A stretch of DNA of 64,000 nucleotides, taken from the sequence record OL856099, one strand, 5' to 3'. Under the pieces are notes generated by a model. The model was given only the letters and a program-made list of their open reading frames with translations, did not search any database and was not told the origin of the DNA. Position numbers and translations under genes: made by a program. Below are positions 33,025 to 47,646 of the stretch, one piece after another (within the stretch, counting starts at the first letter, position 1; every line of letters begins with the position of its first letter). This DNA is from Shigella phage CWP003.

Positions 33025-33885
33025 TTAAAACTCTTCTGCGTCGGTCGGAGTTTCATTGACAGGACCAGCGGCACCACTTGCTTCTTCCTGCTTGCTGCGG
33101 TCAATGTTAACGTTGCCGCCAACCACGTCGTTGTGGAATGCTTTGGCGACTTCGTACAGGCCTTTGTCCTGCACCAGACCTTCCAGCTCAAACTTCAGGA
33201 CGGACCAGGTGTTGCCGTCTTTGGACTGAGACGCAGTACCCATGCGAACGATGTTCATGAAGGTCGGCGGCGTTTTCAGGCCCTGCGGAGTCTGAACTTT
33301 CTTCTGCTGCAGAGCGGTCATCAGCATGCGAGACGGCTTGATCATGGAAGAAGTCAGAGACAGCATTGCACTACCAAATTCACCAGTTTCTTCGTTCAAC
33401 AGAATCACGAAGTGGTTACGTGTATCTGCGTAGTAAGGTGATTTCTTCTCGTGCACCTTGCCGTTTTCGTCTGGCACAAACACCTTACCGTTGATCTCAA
33501 CAGCGCGGCCTGCCGCGACTTCTGCATCAACGTGCTCTTTGGTGAATTCACCTTTAAAGCCTTTATCGTCGGACTCGCGACCGCCCCAAAGGATGAAGGT
33601 GCGTTTGAATGCGCAAGGGATGATCTGCACGCCCTTCTTGCCGTCATACAATTCACCAGTAACGGTGTTGTACAGCATACCAGCTTTTGCGCCAGGAACG
33701 TGTTTTGGATCATCTTCGTCGACCATCGGAGACATCTTTTGCAGTACGACGATAAAAGGAATGGCATAAGCGTCGGCATCGGCACCTTCAAAACCAGCGC
33801 CAAAATCGGTCATATCGACAAAATCAGCCATAGCGGACATCTGGGTGTTTTTTGCTGCAACTTCGGTAGTTTCTTTCTTAGACAT
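33025..33885 (-). CDS. Putative ssDNA-binding protein (T7 gp2.5-like architecture)
   Basis: 286 aa; acidic C-terminal tail ending in Phe (...ETPTDAEEF); sits in the replication operon. Architecture-based inference only. Confidence 0.35.
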   Translation of the reverse strand: MSKKETTEVAAKNTQMSAMADFVDMTDFGAGFEGADADAYAIPFIVVLQKMSPMVDEDDPKHVPGAKAGMLYNTVTGELYDGKKGVQIIPCAFKRTFILWGGRESDDKGFKGEFTKEHVDAEVAAGRAVEINGKVFVPDENGKVHEKKSPYYADTRNHFVILLNEETGEFGSAMLSLTSSMIKPSRMLMTALQQKKVQTPQGLKTPPTFMNIVRMGTASQSKDGNTWSVLKFELEGLVQDKGLYEVAKAFHNDVVGGNVNIDRSKQEEASGAAGPVNETPTDAEEF

Positions 33886-34836: not shown

Positions 34837-36360
34837 TTAATTCATCTTTTTGCCGTCGAGGATGTGATCAGCAAGCATTGACTTCATACTGAGTGAACGC
34901 TGAATTTCTTCGTCGATGGTATCAACACCAATAAAATCAACATACAACACGCTTGATTTGGTGCCGATGCGGTGATTTCGGTCTTCGGATTGTTTGCGCA
35001 GCTCGTTGTCGTAGTTGCAAGAATAATAAATTGCCAAGTCAGCGGCGGTAAGCGTGATGCCGATGCCTGCCGCTGCAGCGTGGCAAACCAATACCTGTGT
35101 TCCACCATTCGCGACTGTGTTCTTCTGGAAGTCATCAATTAAGAACTCGCGCTGCTCTTTGGACGTTTCACCGTTGTATACACCAGTGACCACGCCTTCA
35201 GACTCAAGCCAGTCCTTAATCTGGTTCATCTCTTCCTTAAAGATGGCCCAAACGATGAATTTGCGCTCTGGGTCGTCTTCCAGCACCCCTTCCACATAAT
35301 CCTTAAAGGCCGTGAATCGTGGGTTGTCTTCCATGTAGACCATCTCATCATACACCTTAACAAAACCGGATGTCACCTGCTTCATCTTAGTGCGCGACGC
35401 GATCATCTCAAACTTGACGTTTTCTTCTTCGCCCTTGTATTCCATCAAATAGTTGTACTCATTCTTGAGTTCATCGTAAACATCGCGTTGTTTAGGCGAC
35501 AACTCGAAGTCAATAAACTTGTACACCTTCTCTGGAAGGTCAGGCAAGTATTCTGCTTTTGTTGCACGAAAATAGTGCGGTTCCATCAGCCGGATAAGCT
35601 TGTCAAGGTTCTTGTACATCGGTCGGCCAAACTGGTCTTTGCGCGGCACTTGCGGAATCCCATAGCCATTGCCGCCGATTTTCTTGAGGATGGCTTGCAT
35701 CTCTGGGTCGTGCGCTTCAAGCAGCACAGTGAATTCAGAGTTAAAGGCACGGAATGATTTGGTGCCGAGCAATCCTGCTTCAAGGAAGTGGTATTGCATG
35801 TAAATATCCGCAGGCGAGCGCGGCAACGGCGTGCCAGAAAGGATTCGACGGGCCTTTGCCAGCCGTCCCAATTCCACAACCTTGATGGAGCGTTTGGCTG
35901 TGTTATTCTTGATGCGCGTTGATTCGTCGATGATCATCAGGCAGCGGTACTTCTTCAAGACCGACTCGATGTGTTGATAACCGACTGGTGTGTTGACAGT
36001 ATCGATGTTGAATGAGAAGATGCGCGCAGGCACTTCGCCTTCGGGGTAGTGATCAGCAAACATCTTCTCCCAAAGCGCCTTGCCCTTTTTAGTTTTCATC
36101 TTGTCGTTGCCGCGCCAGTAGTGCCCAATCCACTTGATGGAAAGGTGCTCTGGCGCTTCACGACGAATCCAGTTTGAGTGGACACCGTTTGGAGCGATGA
36201 CTACCATGGCATCGAACGCGCCAGCGGTGAAGTGCTTTTCAAACTCTGCCAAAGCGGTCCAAGTTTTACCAAGACCCTGTTCCATGAAATAGGCAAAGTA
36301 TTTTCTGCGGCCTGCTTTATCAAGCGCCAGAAGCTGGTGGCGCATCCCTTGTGTTTTCAT
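34837..36360 (-). CDS. SNF2-family helicase / DNA-dependent ATPase
   Basis: 507 aa; Walker A-like GLGKT, DExx-like MIIDESTRIKN, SNF2-type ILSGTPLPRSPADIY. Confidence 0.8.
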   Translation of the reverse strand: MKTQGMRHQLLALDKAGRRKYFAYFMEQGLGKTWTALAEFEKHFTAGAFDAMVVIAPNGVHSNWIRREAPEHLSIKWIGHYWRGNDKMKTKKGKALWEKMFADHYPEGEVPARIFSFNIDTVNTPVGYQHIESVLKKYRCLMIIDESTRIKNNTAKRSIKVVELGRLAKARRILSGTPLPRSPADIYMQYHFLEAGLLGTKSFRAFNSEFTVLLEAHDPEMQAILKKIGGNGYGIPQVPRKDQFGRPMYKNLDKLIRLMEPHYFRATKAEYLPDLPEKVYKFIDFELSPKQRDVYDELKNEYNYLMEYKGEEENVKFEMIASRTKMKQVTSGFVKVYDEMVYMEDNPRFTAFKDYVEGVLEDDPERKFIVWAIFKEEMNQIKDWLESEGVVTGVYNGETSKEQREFLIDDFQKNTVANGGTQVLVCHAAAAGIGITLTAADLAIYYSCNYDNELRKQSEDRNHRIGTKSSVLYVDFIGVDTIDEEIQRSLSMKSMLADHILDGKKMN

Positions 36361-40259: not shown

Positions 40260-40811
40260 TTATACAGTGTACGGAGTACCGTCTTGATTCAACCGCACGA
40301 TGAACTTAAGGTCGACACCAATGATTTCACGCGTATCAAAGATCACATAGTTGTAACGACGCTGACCAGCAATGTTTGGGTTGGTGTGAGAGTCGGTCAC
40401 AACTTCCTGCGCAACCTGAATGCCTTCTTCTTTAAAGAACTTGCGCCATTCAGCAAGTTCAGCGGCAGTCACGTGCATACCAAGATGGCTAACCTGATTG
40501 TCGTGCGCATCGATGTATTCGATGTTTTCGTGAATCCAGTTGCAACCTTTTGTATAGTCAAGAATTTCAAGCTCAAGAGGCTTACCAGCTCCGCCATCGG
40601 TGCCGTTGCCAGCCTGATAGTTGAAGCGCAAGTCAGCTTCGTTGGTGCAATCGCCGCGCTGACCCTTAAAGACATCAGCTTCAAATACGCGACCAGTAGC
40701 AACAACGTGATCATGGAACCATTCTGTCAGGCCGATTTTAGCCAGGAAATTCTGTGCGCGCTGAGCACCTGGAATTGACAGGGCGATTTGTTCAATTTTA
40801 AAATGTGGCAT
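40260..40811 (-). CDS. Hypothetical protein (possible small-molecule-binding enzyme)
   Basis: 183 aa track ORF at the edge of the enzyme cluster; no confident motif. Confidence 0.4.
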   Translation of the reverse strand: MPHFKIEQIALSIPGAQRAQNFLAKIGLTEWFHDHVVATGRVFEADVFKGQRGDCTNEADLRFNYQAGNGTDGGAGKPLELEILDYTKGCNWIHENIEYIDAHDNQVSHLGMHVTAAELAEWRKFFKEEGIQVAQEVVTDSHTNPNIAGQRRYNYVIFDTREIIGVDLKFIVRLNQDGTPYTV

Positions 40812-43848: not shown

Positions 43849-44844
43849 TTATTTATTAGCAATATAAGCAAATTTTTGATAGTTATTTGCTTTGATGAGT
43901 TTTTCGACTTCAACAAGGTCATGAGCGACGTCATCAAGCAAGATATTGCGCCAGGTCGCGAATCGACCGACACTAAACACGTTTAAATCCATAGTCAGCT
44001 GCAGGAGTAGGGCGTGTCGCAAGTCTTTCGGAATGTCGACAATCTTGCCATATTTCTGGTCGACCTTTTCAACTTCTTCAAGAGCAATGTCACTCCATGA
44101 AAGGCCAAAGGCCGTCAACACTTCGTCGACTTCTGCGCGCAGCTTCATGTCACGGTAACGAGTGATGCCGCCTGCGGCTTCAACTGCAGCTTCACTCACG
44201 CTGACCAAAGGAATTGTTTCAATGATAAGCGTGTCACCAGTAATTGATGCGCGGTAAGTTCTGACGGAGTAGTCAGGGAAGTAAATTGTCTGATACAAAT
44301 CACACTTACGTTTAATCTTAAAGCGGTAAACGCGAATGTTTGCTTTATCAAATGAGAAATCAAGCTTTTGATCAATTCCAGCAAGCTTCATCATGACTGG
44401 CAGCGGCGACGTGTTGATGATTGGCGTCTCGCTATAGCCGCAAAGAGTATCAACCGGAGTATTAAAGAATATGCGGTCACCCAGTTTGTCGACAAGCTGA
44501 TCATAAAAGTCATCAGGCGCAATATAACGCGTTGCAGTCTTAAGCTTCATGATTGAACGGCTGCCAAATTGATTGGTGACCTTCATGGAATACATATTGG
44601 CAAGGTTGATTGGGCAATGGTCGTGATAGTAGTTGCCGCGAAAATACACAGCCTTGTCAACTGTCACGGCCTTAAAAGGGATTCCGGTAATACGGCTTAC
44701 TTCTTCGCCGCGAAAGCGTAGCAGCGCCTTGTGCTGTTGCGCTCGTTCCCCTGCTTCGTACACAATAGAGTTCGGGAAGTGACACGCGGTGATAAGTCCT
44801 GCCAATCCGCCGCCGATAATCATTACAGGTTGTTTCATGTTCAT
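43849..44844 (-). CDS. FAD/NAD(P)-binding Rossmann-fold oxidoreductase
   Basis: 331 aa; N-terminal dinucleotide-binding motif VMIIGGGLAGL (GxGxxG). Confidence 0.6.
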   Translation of the reverse strand: MNMKQPVMIIGGGLAGLITACHFPNSIVYEAGERAQQHKALLRFRGEEVSRITGIPFKAVTVDKAVYFRGNYYHDHCPINLANMYSMKVTNQFGSRSIMKLKTATRYIAPDDFYDQLVDKLGDRIFFNTPVDTLCGYSETPIINTSPLPVMMKLAGIDQKLDFSFDKANIRVYRFKIKRKCDLYQTIYFPDYSVRTYRASITGDTLIIETIPLVSVSEAAVEAAGGITRYRDMKLRAEVDEVLTAFGLSWSDIALEEVEKVDQKYGKIVDIPKDLRHALLLQLTMDLNVFSVGRFATWRNILLDDVAHDLVEVEKLIKANNYQKFAYIANK

Positions 44845-44976
44845 TTGTCCTTTGTGGGTGATATGAGAAGTATAATAGCTAAATTATTTTACAGCAACAA
44901 GTCATTTTATTTAGTACAGATGAAAAAAGACCCACAACAAGTGTGGGTCAATTACCGCTGCATAACCGTCCTAAGG

Positions 44977-45822
44977 TTATTCCGCTTGATCACCGTCTTC
45001 GGCATCTTCGTTGGGTTCAACATCGACAAACTCGATGTGGCCCATCTCTTCCAGCTTGCTCAGGTAGGAGCGAACGGAAGCGCCAAACAGTTGATCTTTA
45101 ACTTTTTCGCCCAGCTCATCGATAGACTGCGCCACGCCAACTTCGCCTTCTTTGATCGCCGCCAGAACGCGTCCACGGGTGGAATGCTCTTGCGGCTGGC
45201 TCAGGCCATTGCCAGTGTAGATGAAGTGAGTAGCTTTTGCACGACGTTGACCGTTTGCCTTTTTAGCGGCCTTACGTTCTGCGATGGCTTTGCGACGTTC
45301 TTCAGCTTCTTTCTTACGCTGTTCTTTCTGTTGTTCTGCAGCTTCTTTCGCCGCAATCTTAGCAGCTTCACGCTCTGCCTTGCGTTTCGCTTTAGCTTCT
45401 TCTTTGGCCTTCTCTTTTTCGGCCTTCGCTGCAGCACGGGCTTGATCACGCTCTGCTTTCTTAGCAGCAGCTTGTTCAGCTTTCAGGCGCTTGGCTTCTT
45501 CTTTAGCCTTTGCCTTTTCGATTTCTTTTGCTGCTTTAGCGGCTTCACGCTCTGCTTTCTTAGCAGCAGCCTTTTCTGCACGCTCTTTAGCTTTCTTAGC
45601 TGCTTCTTCAGCACGCTTCTGAGCCTTCTCATCAGCAGCCTGCTTGCGTTTCAGGGCAGCTTCTTCACGCTTGGCTTGTTTTTCCTGCTCACGCTTCTGG
45701 CGTTTTTCTTCGGCTTCTTTCTTTTTAGCCAGACGTTTTTCTTCAGCCACGCGACGGCGTTCTGCTGCAGCTGCTTGCTTTTCTTCTTTAGATAATACTT
45801 TGATTGCTTCGGCCATATTCAC
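44977..45822 (-). CDS. Lys/Ala/Glu-rich histone H1-like protein with globular C-terminal domain
   Basis: 281 aa; about 180 residues of KAAE/KAKE-type repeats, then a globular C-terminal region and an acidic tail (EDAEDGDQAE). Confidence 0.55.
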   Translation of the reverse strand: MNMAEAIKVLSKEEKQAAAAERRRVAEEKRLAKKKEAEEKRQKREQEKQAKREEAALKRKQAADEKAQKRAEEAAKKAKERAEKAAAKKAEREAAKAAKEIEKAKAKEEAKRLKAEQAAAKKAERDQARAAAKAEKEKAKEEAKAKRKAEREAAKIAAKEAAEQQKEQRKKEAEERRKAIAERKAAKKANGQRRAKATHFIYTGNGLSQPQEHSTRGRVLAAIKEGEVGVAQSIDELGEKVKDQLFGASVRSYLSKLEEMGHIEFVDVEPNEDAEDGDQAE

Positions 45823-45975
45823 AGTCCTTAAATAAATTAGTTTATTTTATATTCCCCGTTTGGGATAACTTAATTATGCCTTCAGTCGCCGCCAGTAGCA
45901 ACTAAAAACTCTGGCGGCAATGCCACTTTAATTAAACTGATTTTCAGTTTTATTTTTCGTAAATTTACGTCAACA

Positions 45976-47160
45976 TTAACGCGCTTTCAAATCACGGTAC
46001 ACGGTCAGATTCTTCTTAGCGCGGGTGATGGCTGTGTACATCATCTTGGCATACGGAACGCCGCGCAAGATTTCTTCTAGCACGCACACATTGTCCCACT
46101 CGCTGCCTTGCGATTTGTGCACCGTTATGACATAGCCATAGTCCATGCCTCCAACAGCGCGTTGAGCCTCTTTGCGCACTTCCTGATCAGTAGAGAAGGA
46201 AAGAGGATTTATCTTCACCTTTATATCTTTGCCATCGGTAAGCGAGCGCAAATTGACATACATGATTTCATTAGACTCGTCTTCATCCCTTTCAAAGTCC
46301 GGTACTGGCTCATAACTAATAACAATCCCTTGCTCGCCATTACAGAATCCTGGACCGTGTTGATTGAATGTGCAAATAACTTTCTCGCCGATTCCTGGCA
46401 TTGGCGTTATACGTCCGCTCACTTGGCGCAATAATGAATTCCATTTATCTTTGGTGCTATTATAAGAGCAAATAATTTGATCATCTTCGCCCATGAATTT
46501 CTTCAGTGCGGTAACGCGCGGCGATTCAGCCAACACCTTTACGTCATCGTATTCACGCGGAGGAAGTCGGTTGCCCTGTCGCACGAAGAAGGAAGCGCGG
46601 ATTATGTTTGACTCTTTCCCCTGCCGCATGATTTCGGTTAACAGTACGTCAACGGCATCTTCAGTGAAGTAGGCGGCGGCTTTTACCGGAGGGACTTGTC
46701 CAATGTCGCCTAATGCCAGGACAGGGATGCGGTGATCAAGAAGGCGCTCTGTGTCCCACTCACCGACCATTGAAGCTTCATCAAGGACGACAAGGTGCGG
46801 CCTTTCATCAAGCGTTGACTTTCTTGCGAAGATTGGTTCATTGTCATCGTTAACGCCGCGCACGTTATAGATGAACTGGTGAAGGGTCTTAGCGCCACGA
46901 CAACCTTTTTGCTTTAATCGGCTGGCGGCCTTTCCGGTCGGCGCAATATAAATGGCACCGTACTCACCGACACAACGGCGCACAATCTCACGCGCAATAG
47001 AGGTTTTACCTGTTCCTGCATAGCCAGCGATGAAAAACACGCGCTTCGTCGTTTTACCGTCCTGCAATCGCTTGTACCATGCAACGGCCTTTTCGATGGC
47101 ATCAATCTGTTGCGCGTTGAACTGAATCACTGGCTCATTATTAAATTCTGGAATGTTCAT
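45976..47160 (-). CDS. SF1 DNA helicase (RecD/Dda/Pif1-like)
   Basis: 394 aa; Walker A GYAGTGKTS, Walker B-like VVLDEASMV. Confidence 0.75.
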   Translation of the reverse strand: MNIPEFNNEPVIQFNAQQIDAIEKAVAWYKRLQDGKTTKRVFFIAGYAGTGKTSIAREIVRRCVGEYGAIYIAPTGKAASRLKQKGCRGAKTLHQFIYNVRGVNDDNEPIFARKSTLDERPHLVVLDEASMVGEWDTERLLDHRIPVLALGDIGQVPPVKAAAYFTEDAVDVLLTEIMRQGKESNIIRASFFVRQGNRLPPREYDDVKVLAESPRVTALKKFMGEDDQIICSYNSTKDKWNSLLRQVSGRITPMPGIGEKVICTFNQHGPGFCNGEQGIVISYEPVPDFERDEDESNEIMYVNLRSLTDGKDIKVKINPLSFSTDQEVRKEAQRAVGGMDYGYVITVHKSQGSEWDNVCVLEEILRGVPYAKMMYTAITRAKKNLTVYRDLKAR

Positions 47161-47486: not shown

Positions 47487-47524
47487 TTCAGGCGACCTTT
47501 GTTAGTGCGGAAATATTTTCTGAT

Positions 47525-47553
47525 AGTATAATTGCAGATATAGTATAAAGCAA
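47525..47553 (-). promoter_or_regulatory. Leftward sigma70-like promoter (TTGCTT, 17 nt spacer, TATACT on the minus strand)
   Basis: Read from the reverse complement of the divergent intergenic region. Confidence 0.4.
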
Positions 47554-47589
47554 AGTAAATCGAAATTGTGAACTAAATGGTAAATATTG

Positions 47590-47617
47590 TTGACTTTGTA
47601 TCACTCAATATTATACT
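47590..47617 (+). promoter_or_regulatory. Rightward sigma70-like promoter (TTGACT, 16 nt spacer, TATACT)
   Basis: Read from sequence about 30 nt upstream of ATG 47647, with AAGGAAAG RBS. Confidence 0.45.
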
Positions 47618-47646
47618 GCAGGTATTGATCACCGAAGGAAAGAAAG

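Follow-up and report, generated by a model that had tools for sequence, protein, structure and literature searches.

The window analysed here is a 64,000-nt stretch of Shigella phage CWP003 (OL856099), and the gene with which we are concerned lies on its minus strand. A preliminary description of this DNA had assigned the gene to positions 44977-45822; we confirmed the minus-strand open reading frame 44977..45822 in the sequence, but its upstream start was not upheld. An AAGGA Shine-Dalgarno sequence is located 2 nt from the GTG at 45822 and 8 nt from the ATG at 45816, and the ATG is the start in all annotated relatives (840 nt, 279 aa). Because the GTG is too near the Shine-Dalgarno sequence and the annotated records begin at the ATG, we take the latter to be the true start (Table 1). 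The surrounding 3.5 kb of the window agree to 100% with Wifcevirus WFH (OZ035737) and to 99.9% with Escherichia phage vB_EcoM_WFH (NC_048194). Phages of the Wifcevirus WFH type are virulent E. coli myoviruses of 68 to 71 kb and are distant relatives of the PB1-like phages (Pbunavirus) of Pseudomonas (PMC11990801). The window gene product, which equals HOV51_gp068 of phage WFH, is called gp068 throughout, and residue numbers and values given for WFH refer to this protein. It is named a hypothetical protein in the WFH RefSeq record, while its orthologs in the FEC19, ECML-117, vB_Eco4M-7, and Ro157lw records carry the label “TolA protein,” as do family members in the MTx and BcepF1 records. Residues 1 to 279 align with positions 14 to 271 (of 294) of the PHROGs profile phrog_4765, which is labelled as of unknown function (E = 2.1e-83); a Pfam search with the full protein returned no family at E ≤ 0.1.

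Table 1. Features of the gp068 locus (positions in the 64,000-nt window)
Feature	Position	Strand	Description or basis
Dda-like SF1B helicase gene, upstream neighbour	45976..47160	-	AAA_30 and UvrD_C_2 domains; phrog_325
Intergenic spacer, 159 nt, helicase gene to gp068	45817..45975	-	About 4 variable positions among 7 genomes
GC-rich hairpin within spacer	45888-45918	-	Sequence
Sigma-70-like promoter candidate, TTGCTA-17-CATAAT	45873..45901	-	Pattern match and conservation
gp068 coding sequence	44977..45816	-	279 aa, 31.2 kDa, pI 9.6; open reading frame call, Shine-Dalgarno spacing, annotated relatives
N-terminal peptide MAEAIKVL and S/T-x-x-E helix N-capping box (L-S9-K-E-E12)	45781..45816	-	Family sequences; helix predicted from residue 10
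Charged helix, residues 10-186	45259..45789	-	AlphaFold2 prediction, composition
Basic arm and winged-helix-like domain, residues 191-264	45025..45246	-	Family alignment, AlphaFold2, fold comparison
Acidic tail, residues 265-279, predicted disordered, net charge -7	44980..45024	-	Composition, AlphaFold2
Intrinsic terminator, 8-bp stem then TTTTTT, directly past the stop codon	44929..44949	-	Hairpin and annotations
331-aa protein gene, downstream neighbour	43849..44844	-	phrog_4828 (labelled unknown function); GGGLAG dinucleotide-binding motif
Antisense 354-aa open reading frame	44731..45795	+	Compositional artefact, not a gene; substitution pattern and codon phase

The long open reading frame on the opposite strand required separate attention, because DadIII-1, a functional antisense-overlapping gene that adjoins the Dda helicase gene in Pbunaviruses, sets a precedent in related phages (PMC12390725). 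This 354-aa plus-strand frame shares codon phase with gp068, so that antisense stops can arise solely from the sense codons TTA, CTA, or TCA, and gp068 has only one such codon (codon 8). Among seven Wifcevirus genomes the gp068 coding sequence contains 77 variable sites, 69 of which fall at sense codon position 3, and synonymous and nonsynonymous codon differences, summed over genome pairs, stand at 551:42 in the sense frame versus 80:513 in the antisense frame. This substitution pattern rules out a functional antisense gene opposite gp068, and together with the codon phase and the single stop-capable codon it bears out the earlier view of the plus-strand frame as an artefact. The antisense frame is equally open (0 to 1 stops) in homologs from five genera, including phages of Pseudomonas, Vibrio, Xanthomonas, and Serratia, an openness that we ascribe to codon composition.

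Within the genus, the locus hardly varies. All 28 Wifcevirus records carry it at the same length and with at least 95% identity, and the coding sequence is exactly 840 nt in each of the seven genomes compared. Residues 1 to 198 show no amino acid change among these seven genomes, while codons 1 to 190 carry 45 variable nucleotides; the seven replacements that do occur all lie in residues 199 to 270. gp068 is thus a real gene under strong purifying selection. The DNA-level repeat analysis that had been proposed as a check for copy-number instability found no sign of it within the genus: Tandem Repeats Finder (TRF) detected only a two-copy 15-mer, other repeats are degenerate (60 to 90% identity), and the constant length of the locus likewise excludes an unstable tandem repeat. 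Nor did we find any strong 7- or 11-residue periodicity in the protein.

The overall architecture given in the preliminary description, namely, a long K/A/E-rich helix followed by a globular C-terminal domain and an acidic tail, agrees with both the composition and the AlphaFold2 model. Residues 1 to 205 are 29% A, 23% K, 19% E, and 11% R, with a net charge of +28. In the model (11-sequence alignment, mean pLDDT of 85), residues 10 to 186 are predicted to form one unbroken helix of ca. 177 residues, which would measure ca. 26.5 nm if fully extended; it is rich in A, K, E, and R, and bulky hydrophobic residues make up only ca. 3% of it. A capping box of the form L-T/S-x-E-Q/E precedes the helix in most family members (LSKEE in WFH, LTKEQ or LTAEQ elsewhere), and in about one-third of them a His-rich peptide lies ahead of this box. 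Between genera the sequence and length of the helix vary (from ca. 30 to 250 residues), with its composition being kept. The constraint within the genus, the capping box, and the retained composition accord better with a rod of defined structure than with a disordered tail.

What kind of rod this might be was considered in terms of known helical elements. A classical coiled coil can be dismissed, as bulky hydrophobics account for 1 to 14% of the segment in the family and no heptad frame has an a/d occupancy above 0.23. The predicted continuous helix therefore lacks a hydrophobic seam, as expected of a single alpha-helix (SAH). SAH spacers of the ER/K type occur in myosin VI and X, INCENP, and caldesmon. 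Like these spacers, and like domain II of TolA, the gp068 segment is a long, hydrophobic-poor A/K/E/R helix, predicted to be continuous, whose length varies while its composition is kept. A clean ER/K SAH signature was nevertheless not obtained: enrichment of opposite charges at i/i+4 beyond that expected from composition is weak and inconsistent across the family (z scores of 2.1 in WFH, 2.2 in PB1, and 4.5 in the Vibrio phage JSF39 but -0.9 to -1.7 in other members), and the Ala content, ca. 25 to 30%, is above that of classical ER/K motifs. With a net charge of +25, the WFH helix is itself an outlier; in most members the helix is roughly charge neutral (net 0 to +13), PB1 gp69 is net -5 overall (72 K+R versus 77 D+E), and acidic residues constitute 17 to 27% of the segment across full-length members. 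It follows that electrostatic coating of DNA by the helix cannot be the conserved mechanism. The conserved property of the helix is that of a stiff, soluble, charged rod.

It is this helix that presumably gave rise to the TolA annotations, through low-complexity BLAST matches. An envelope-spanning, TolA-like protein, which the preliminary description had named as the finding that would overturn its own interpretation, was not borne out. The one point in favour of the database name is that the helix is similar in composition to TolA domain II. The membrane anchor of TolA has no counterpart in gp068, where the maximum 19-residue Kyte-Doolittle mean is 0.61 (and ≤1.32 in more than 30 family members), leaving no hydrophobic segment; there is no Pfam or NCBIfam TolA match; and the C-terminal domain is winged-helix-like rather than a TolA/TonB C-domain. 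Membership in the TolA family is therefore refuted, and we consider it extremely improbable that gp068 spans the envelope in the manner of TolA.

Residues 191 to 264 are the only part of the protein that is conserved in sequence across the whole family. In the AlphaFold2 model, residues 197 to 264 form a compact domain of the order beta-alpha-beta-alpha-alpha-beta (strand 197-200, helix 213-222, strand 229-231, helices 232-238 and 248-257, and strand 261-264), and residues 186 to 279 modelled alone gave the same domain, with a core pLDDT of ca. 90 and a pTM of 0.69. The predicted three-helix bundle and beta wing, along with structural similarity to solved winged-helix domains, argue for a winged-helix fold. 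The closest fold relatives include the winged helices of RPA32C, PriA, ORC, ScpB, the kleisin C-terminal domain (C-WHD), and PolB1-binding protein 2, as well as the repressors MecI/BlaI, ArsR, and Fur; matches to protein-binding domains (RPA32C, PolB1-binding protein 2, kleisin, and ScpB) score level with those to DNA-binding ones. Single-sequence and profile searches found no sequence link to solved structures, and a Pfam search with the domain returned nothing at E ≤ 10 except DUF6240. Kinship with the nucleoid protein YejK/NA37 was considered and rejected: only 3 of 23 family members match PF04245, all below threshold (best E = 0.005), the family profile matches 9be2 at E = 0.31, and hhalign gave 25.7% probability over 37 columns that stop short of the recognition helix.

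The domain is preceded by a conserved basic arm (RRAKATH..YTG.G.S.PQ..S.RG) and contains a putative recognition helix, SVRSYLSKLEE. In an alignment of 23 diverse C-terminal regions, R192, Q209, S212, R214, G227, R249, and K254 (WFH numbering) are invariant and R191, T196, G204, G215, I232, L252, and L255 are nearly so. Most of the invariant residues are basic or polar; these positions map to the N-terminal arm, to the helix 1 N-cap, and to a single face of the third helix. We infer that this surface is a ligand contact and that the ligand would most simply be nucleic acid. The acidic tail that follows is common in the family, often ending in -AE, and residues 206 to 279 of gp068 as a whole carry a net charge of -11.

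The spacer upstream of gp068 is nearly invariant, with ca. 4 variable positions in 159 nt versus 77 in the 840 nt of coding sequence (seven genomes). The promoter match within it is, taken alone, weak evidence, because promoter-like sites in the wider region are no more numerous than expected from shuffled sequence. In PB1-like phages the spacer is similar in length and contains a candidate of its own (TTCCCT-17-GATAAT, picked by eye in the alignment). The strong intrinsic terminator appears among the annotations of the WFH, WFC, Mansfield, and MTx records, and PB1 has an equivalent hairpin; a search of the conserved spacer for known RNA elements found none. Judging from the conserved spacer, the promoter-like site, and the terminator, gp068 appears to be a self-contained unit in both genera.

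Codon usage is equally distinctive. Every one of the 25 Arg codons of gp068 is CGT or CGC, CTG accounts for 9 of 10 Leu codons, and GCT and GAA are overrepresented. The codon adaptation index (CAI), calculated with the Sharp-Li E. coli weights, is 0.576, which ranks gp068 first among the 92 genes of the window (z = 3.3); the gene for the major head protein (phrog_264) reaches 0.524. When gp068 was recoded with phage-wide synonymous usage, the CAI fell to 0.363 ± 0.025, with a maximum of 0.487 in 2,000 trials. Such codon usage is strong evidence that gp068 is very highly expressed, and expression at this level would imply a stoichiometric rather than a catalytic role.

Mass spectrometry of orthologs, published by Necel et al. 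in 2020, bears directly on this prediction. [quoted passage not shown] Our in silico trypsin digest yields only 7 peptides of 7 to 35 residues, with a maximum coverage of 32.6%, so that detection in vB_Eco4M-7 was effectively saturating. Since all 7 observable peptides were found, with a score comparable to those of the portal and capsid proteins, the ortholog is evidently both expressed and abundant. In ECML-117, by comparison, the ortholog gp81 was represented by 2 peptides and a score of 3.2 (3.21), versus 110 for the capsid protein (PMC7048862).

A score above those of the major capsid and sheath proteins in CsCl-purified particles, its weak detection in ECML-117, a codon adaptation comparable to that of structural genes, and the name “putative structural protein” that several Pbunavirus records give to the homolog might all be taken to mean that gp068 is part of the virion, perhaps internal and associated with DNA in the head, possibly delivered with the genome, or otherwise bound to the particle. 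We think this somewhat unlikely. The ratio of ortholog to capsid score is 1.28 in vB_Eco4M-7 but 0.03 in ECML-117, ca. 40-fold apart in two close relatives; protein scores are only semiquantitative, but a component of fixed stoichiometry should not behave in this way, and the ratios for a Pam3-gp34-like protein are nearly equal in the two phages (0.55 and 0.57). Other, clearly nonstructural proteins were present in the same vB_Eco4M-7 preparation, and the varying ratio suggests a copurified, abundant, and possibly DNA-bound protein rather than a fixed structural part. Consistent with this, the homolog is absent from the list of 31 proteins identified in LiCl- and DNase-treated particles of the Pbunavirus SCUT-S1, the gp numbers sought for it do not occur in the E217 cryo-electron microscopy (cryo-EM) paper, and “TolA” does not occur in the Pa193 cryo-EM paper. 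We could trace no experimental origin for the structural label; the original 14-1 record lists ORF66 simply as a hypothetical protein. Moreover, gp068 is situated in the replication module behind a sigma-70-like promoter candidate and not with the late genes.

The composition of that module is informative. Beyond the neighbours listed in Table 1, the genes farther downstream encode ThyX, a polynucleotide kinase, a FabG-like reductase, a Pol III epsilon-like exonuclease, a Pol III alpha-like polymerase, and an SNF2-family translocase (with SNF2-rel_dom and Helicase_C domains in WFH) of a kind that the authors of the Banzai study likened to nucleosome-sliding enzymes. The preliminary description had set gp068 in a replication operon; these neighbours confirm its placement in the replication module, although it has a promoter-like site and a terminator of its own. 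The order Dda-like helicase, gp068 homolog, phrog_4828 is kept in PB1, JG024, the Xanthomonas phage Carpasina, and the Serratia phage MTx; in JSF39 the block of nucleotide metabolism genes is missing, and an unannotated 394-aa helicase open reading frame precedes the gp068 homolog. We surveyed 12 loci by tblastn, including 8 uncultivated viral contigs. A Dda-like helicase gene lies upstream of the family gene in 10 of the 10 loci with enough sequence, representing at least 6 lineages, and a phrog_4828 homolog lies downstream in 10 of the 11 loci that clearly carry the domain. As small extra genes are inserted between helicase and family gene in two contigs, we regard the helicase link as a conserved neighbourhood and not as obligatory cotranscription. 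The annotation of the curated BASEL Wifcevirus genome includes no single-stranded DNA-binding protein (SSB), sliding clamp, or other accessory protein that binds DNA, and Pfam searches found none among the module proteins examined. Iterons or arrays of binding sites were likewise not found near gp068 or at the GC-skew minimum.

The constancy of the helicase neighbour raises the possibility that gp068 is a tether or adaptor of the replisome, in which the winged helix would bind a phage protein (e.g., the Dda-like helicase, the Pol III alpha-type polymerase, or the SNF2-like translocase) and the helix would act as an ER/K-type spacer setting the distance to a partner of the N-terminal peptide. 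A protein ligand would agree with the equal scores of protein-binding winged helices, and the invariance of the exposed recognition-helix face across phages of very different hosts is what a conserved protein partner would impose. The scarcity of hydrophobic residues in the helix, the charge pairing that is significant in some members, and the variable, often His-rich N termini can be read in the same way. However, the highest codon adaptation in the genome is more than a tether for a few replisomes would require, the salt-bridge signal is absent or negative in several members, the supposed second site amounts to only 8 residues in WFH, and the genes inserted in some contigs part the family gene from the helicase. 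On balance, we give this possibility a minor share of the probability.

The family is narrow. By tblastn, the domain (residues 191 to 279) is present in 356 phage records, 293 of them from Pseudomonas phages (including PB1 gp69/ORF66, 14-1 ORF66, JG024 gp67, and E217) and others from phages of Serratia, Pantoea, Burkholderia, Xanthomonas, Erwinia, Salmonella, and Vibrio. When 1.84 billion representative proteins were searched exhaustively with HMMER, only 26 clusters were recovered (E ≤ 1e-3); a word-indexed homolog search gave 8 usable homologs with the full-length query and only fragments with the C-terminal domain. Full-length members range from 116 to 354 aa, and in every one of them the domain is C-terminal to a charged helix. 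The family is confined to virulent phages. This restriction, the common acidic tail, the kleisin and ScpB winged helices among the fold matches, and the wealth of anti-defence genes near the locus in this phage group (PMC12390725) could be accommodated if the winged-helix head or the acidic tail of a rod-shaped protein sequestered a conserved host factor, such as a nucleoid protein or an SMC-type complex, during host takeover. We nonetheless consider such a role improbable. Apart from a marginal match of the domain to the Csa3 wHTH, no defence or anti-defence model was matched, and the hosts extend from Vibrio to Xanthomonas, so that a single target would have to be very conserved. Furthermore, in contrast to typical accessory anti-defence genes, this gene occurs in all of the genomes examined, and its conservation equals that of core replication enzymes (41 to 63% identity for the domain across loci versus 49 to 56% for the helicase).

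The interpretation that we favour, although tentatively, is that gp068 is an abundant accessory protein of the replication module that associates with DNA and acts stoichiometrically. We prefer it because of the purifying selection on the gene, its top-ranking CAI, the mass spectrometry of its orthologs, the predicted winged-helix-like fold, and the basic and polar character of the invariant residues, and also because of the narrow family, the helicase synteny, the failure to detect an SSB or clamp, and the self-contained expression unit. According to this scheme, the basic arm and winged-helix domain would be the functional head, docking on DNA either generically or at a structure or DNA-bound feature common to all these phages, and the ca. 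26-nm charged, hydrophobic-poor helix would project from it as a stiff spacer, with an acidic tail that may mask or modulate the basic head. Present in stoichiometric amounts, gp068 might then coat, organize, or shield the replicating phage DNA, as phi29 p6 or SPO1 TF1 do, and this nonenzymatic role would be common to Wifcevirus, Pbunavirus, and related phages. The DNA-coating or nucleoid-remodelling function proposed in the preliminary description thus finds partial support, with the exception of the electrostatic coating by the helix itself.

Several known proteins invite comparison. phi29 p6 and SPO1 TF1 are abundant, phage-encoded, histone-like proteins of DNA architecture; p6 has an acidic C-terminal region but neither a winged helix nor a long rod, and TF1 is an HU-fold dimer. 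Like them, gp068 is a small to medium-sized, apparently nonenzymatic protein that seems to be very highly expressed and linked to replication, with a proposed stoichiometric action on the phage genome and a predicted capacity for DNA binding; it has no relationship of sequence or fold to either protein. The label “histone H1-like” also had some merit, inasmuch as a winged-helix-class globular domain, a Lys/Ala-rich segment, abundance, and (in gp068) the replication context do recall the linker histones H1 and H5. Homology to H1 was not sustained: none of 23 family members has a Pfam Linker_histone match, structural comparison with H1 globular domains gave no significant match, and the order of the domains is reversed. 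Moreover, the K/A-rich part of gp068 is a predicted stable helix with ca. 20% Glu/Asp, close to neutral outside WFH, and not a disordered polycationic tail.

One more far-reaching, and in our estimation rather improbable, version of the DNA-associated role is that these phages possess a minimal chromatin. Here, very many copies of gp068 would cover the replicating phage DNA, their 26-nm helices projecting from the duplex as bristles, and would provide either a steric shield or an organizing scaffold to counter host nucleases and nucleoid proteins. Ahead of replication and transcription, this coat would be cleared or slid along by the co-conserved Dda-like helicase and by the SNF2/Ino80-like translocase of the module.

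Some of what is reported here is already known: the gene and its family are in the databases, albeit under misleading names, and the winged helix and the TolA-II/SAH-like rod are familiar building blocks. Our literature search found no description of the combination of winged helix and rod, of its restriction to this clade, or of the extreme expression signature. As the names “TolA” and “structural protein” are wrong or unsupported, correction of the annotation would be useful in any case. In therapy, the Pbunaviruses rank with the most widely used Pseudomonas phages; replication of Wifceviruses is reported to be exceptionally fast (PMC11990801), and the strongest expression signature in the window, above that of the major capsid gene, belongs to gp068. 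If gp068 does prove to be an abundant DNA-associated factor, it would represent a new architectural class beside phi29 p6 and SPO1 TF1 and would bear on the replication, genome protection, and engineering of these phages.

The N terminus of the target family (phrog_4765) is variable. In about one-third of its members, a His-rich peptide (for example, MSHGHEHGHHQGHHNAQ) precedes the helix capping box, the S/T-x-x-E motif that starts the long helix; the WFH protein has no such peptide. It is because of this peptide that we propose a metal- or partner-binding N terminus in the members that carry it, as their sequence suggests.

The spacer upstream of the target gene folds more stably than its shuffled counterparts (z, -2.74), and a comparison with Rfam matched no family. 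The region containing the hairpin could be an attenuator, a terminator, or an operator governing the highly expressed target gene. On the other side of this gene, the phrog_4828 protein carries an N-terminal dinucleotide-binding motif (IIGGGLAGL), had no match in Pfam, and in one record (Mansfield) is named UDP-galactopyranose mutase. Its gene adjoins ThyX in every lineage except Vibrio JSF39, and the product could be a flavoenzyme with a role in the metabolism of nucleotides or DNA.

In Vibrio phage JSF39, we found an ORF with 49% identity to the Dda-like helicase of WFH (E value, 1e-107) that is not annotated in the deposited record, an annotation gap. Some uncultivated relatives have small moron-like genes separating the helicase from the target gene, and one of these inserted genes encodes a lipoprotein-type signal sequence (MNRLLIALSFALLTSGC). 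The replication module also contains the gene for an SNF2-family translocase, the Pbunavirus ortholog of which has been compared to the Ino80/CHD1L chromatin remodellers (PMC12390725). The cumulative GC-skew minimum (ca. 47.0 to 47.6 kb) coincides with the divergent intergenic region, where ATAGTATAA is present as a duplicate and a promoter-like site (TTGACT-16-TATACT) occurs; a search of this region for an iteron array found none. The region could be an origin, or it could simply be the point at which the direction of transcription switches.

Coordinates of the features discussed
Feature	Location	Strand	Remarks
Pam3_Gp34-like protein, 286 aa	window 33025-33885	-	PF23977, phrog_2402
SNF2-family translocase, 507 aa	window 34837-36360	-	SNF2-rel_dom + Helicase_C
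183-aa protein	window 40260-40811	-	CAI 0.471, rank 4
phrog_4828 protein, 331 aa	window 43849-44844	-	universal downstream neighbour of target gene
Spacer upstream of target gene	window 45817-45975	-	near-invariant among Wifceviruses
GC-rich hairpin in spacer, 8 bp	window 45888-45918	-	overlaps candidate -35 box
Divergent intergenic region	window 47487-47646		between Dda operon and RepB-type primase
Dda-like helicase ORF, 394 aa	L004:2230-3414	+	Vibrio phage JSF39, PV834959
Small moron-like gene insertion	L022:2535-3044	+	between helicase and target gene
Family members with His-rich N terminus	L019:3503-4276, L022:3461-4282		P0008, P0009, P0011, P0012, P0015, P0022, P0024, P0025

Two further proteins can be set beside published mass spectrometry. 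The 183-aa protein, which matched nothing in Pfam, PHROG, or PDB, is probably, by size and gene order only, the 20.8-kDa "glyoxalase family protein" strongly detected (score, 718) in vB_Eco4M-7 preparations (PMC7048862). The same study observed a 31.2-kDa protein in CsCl-purified vB_Eco4M-7 and ECML-117 (PMC7048862), and its score relative to that of the capsid protein was nearly constant (0.55 and 0.57); on mass and gene order only, we take it to be the ortholog of the Pam3_Gp34-like protein, whose gene has the second-highest CAI in the window (0.561). SCUT-S1 particles contain a 32-kDa protein encoded at a similar genome position. The Pam3_Gp34-like protein may be a true component of the virion whose gene lies outside the structural module.
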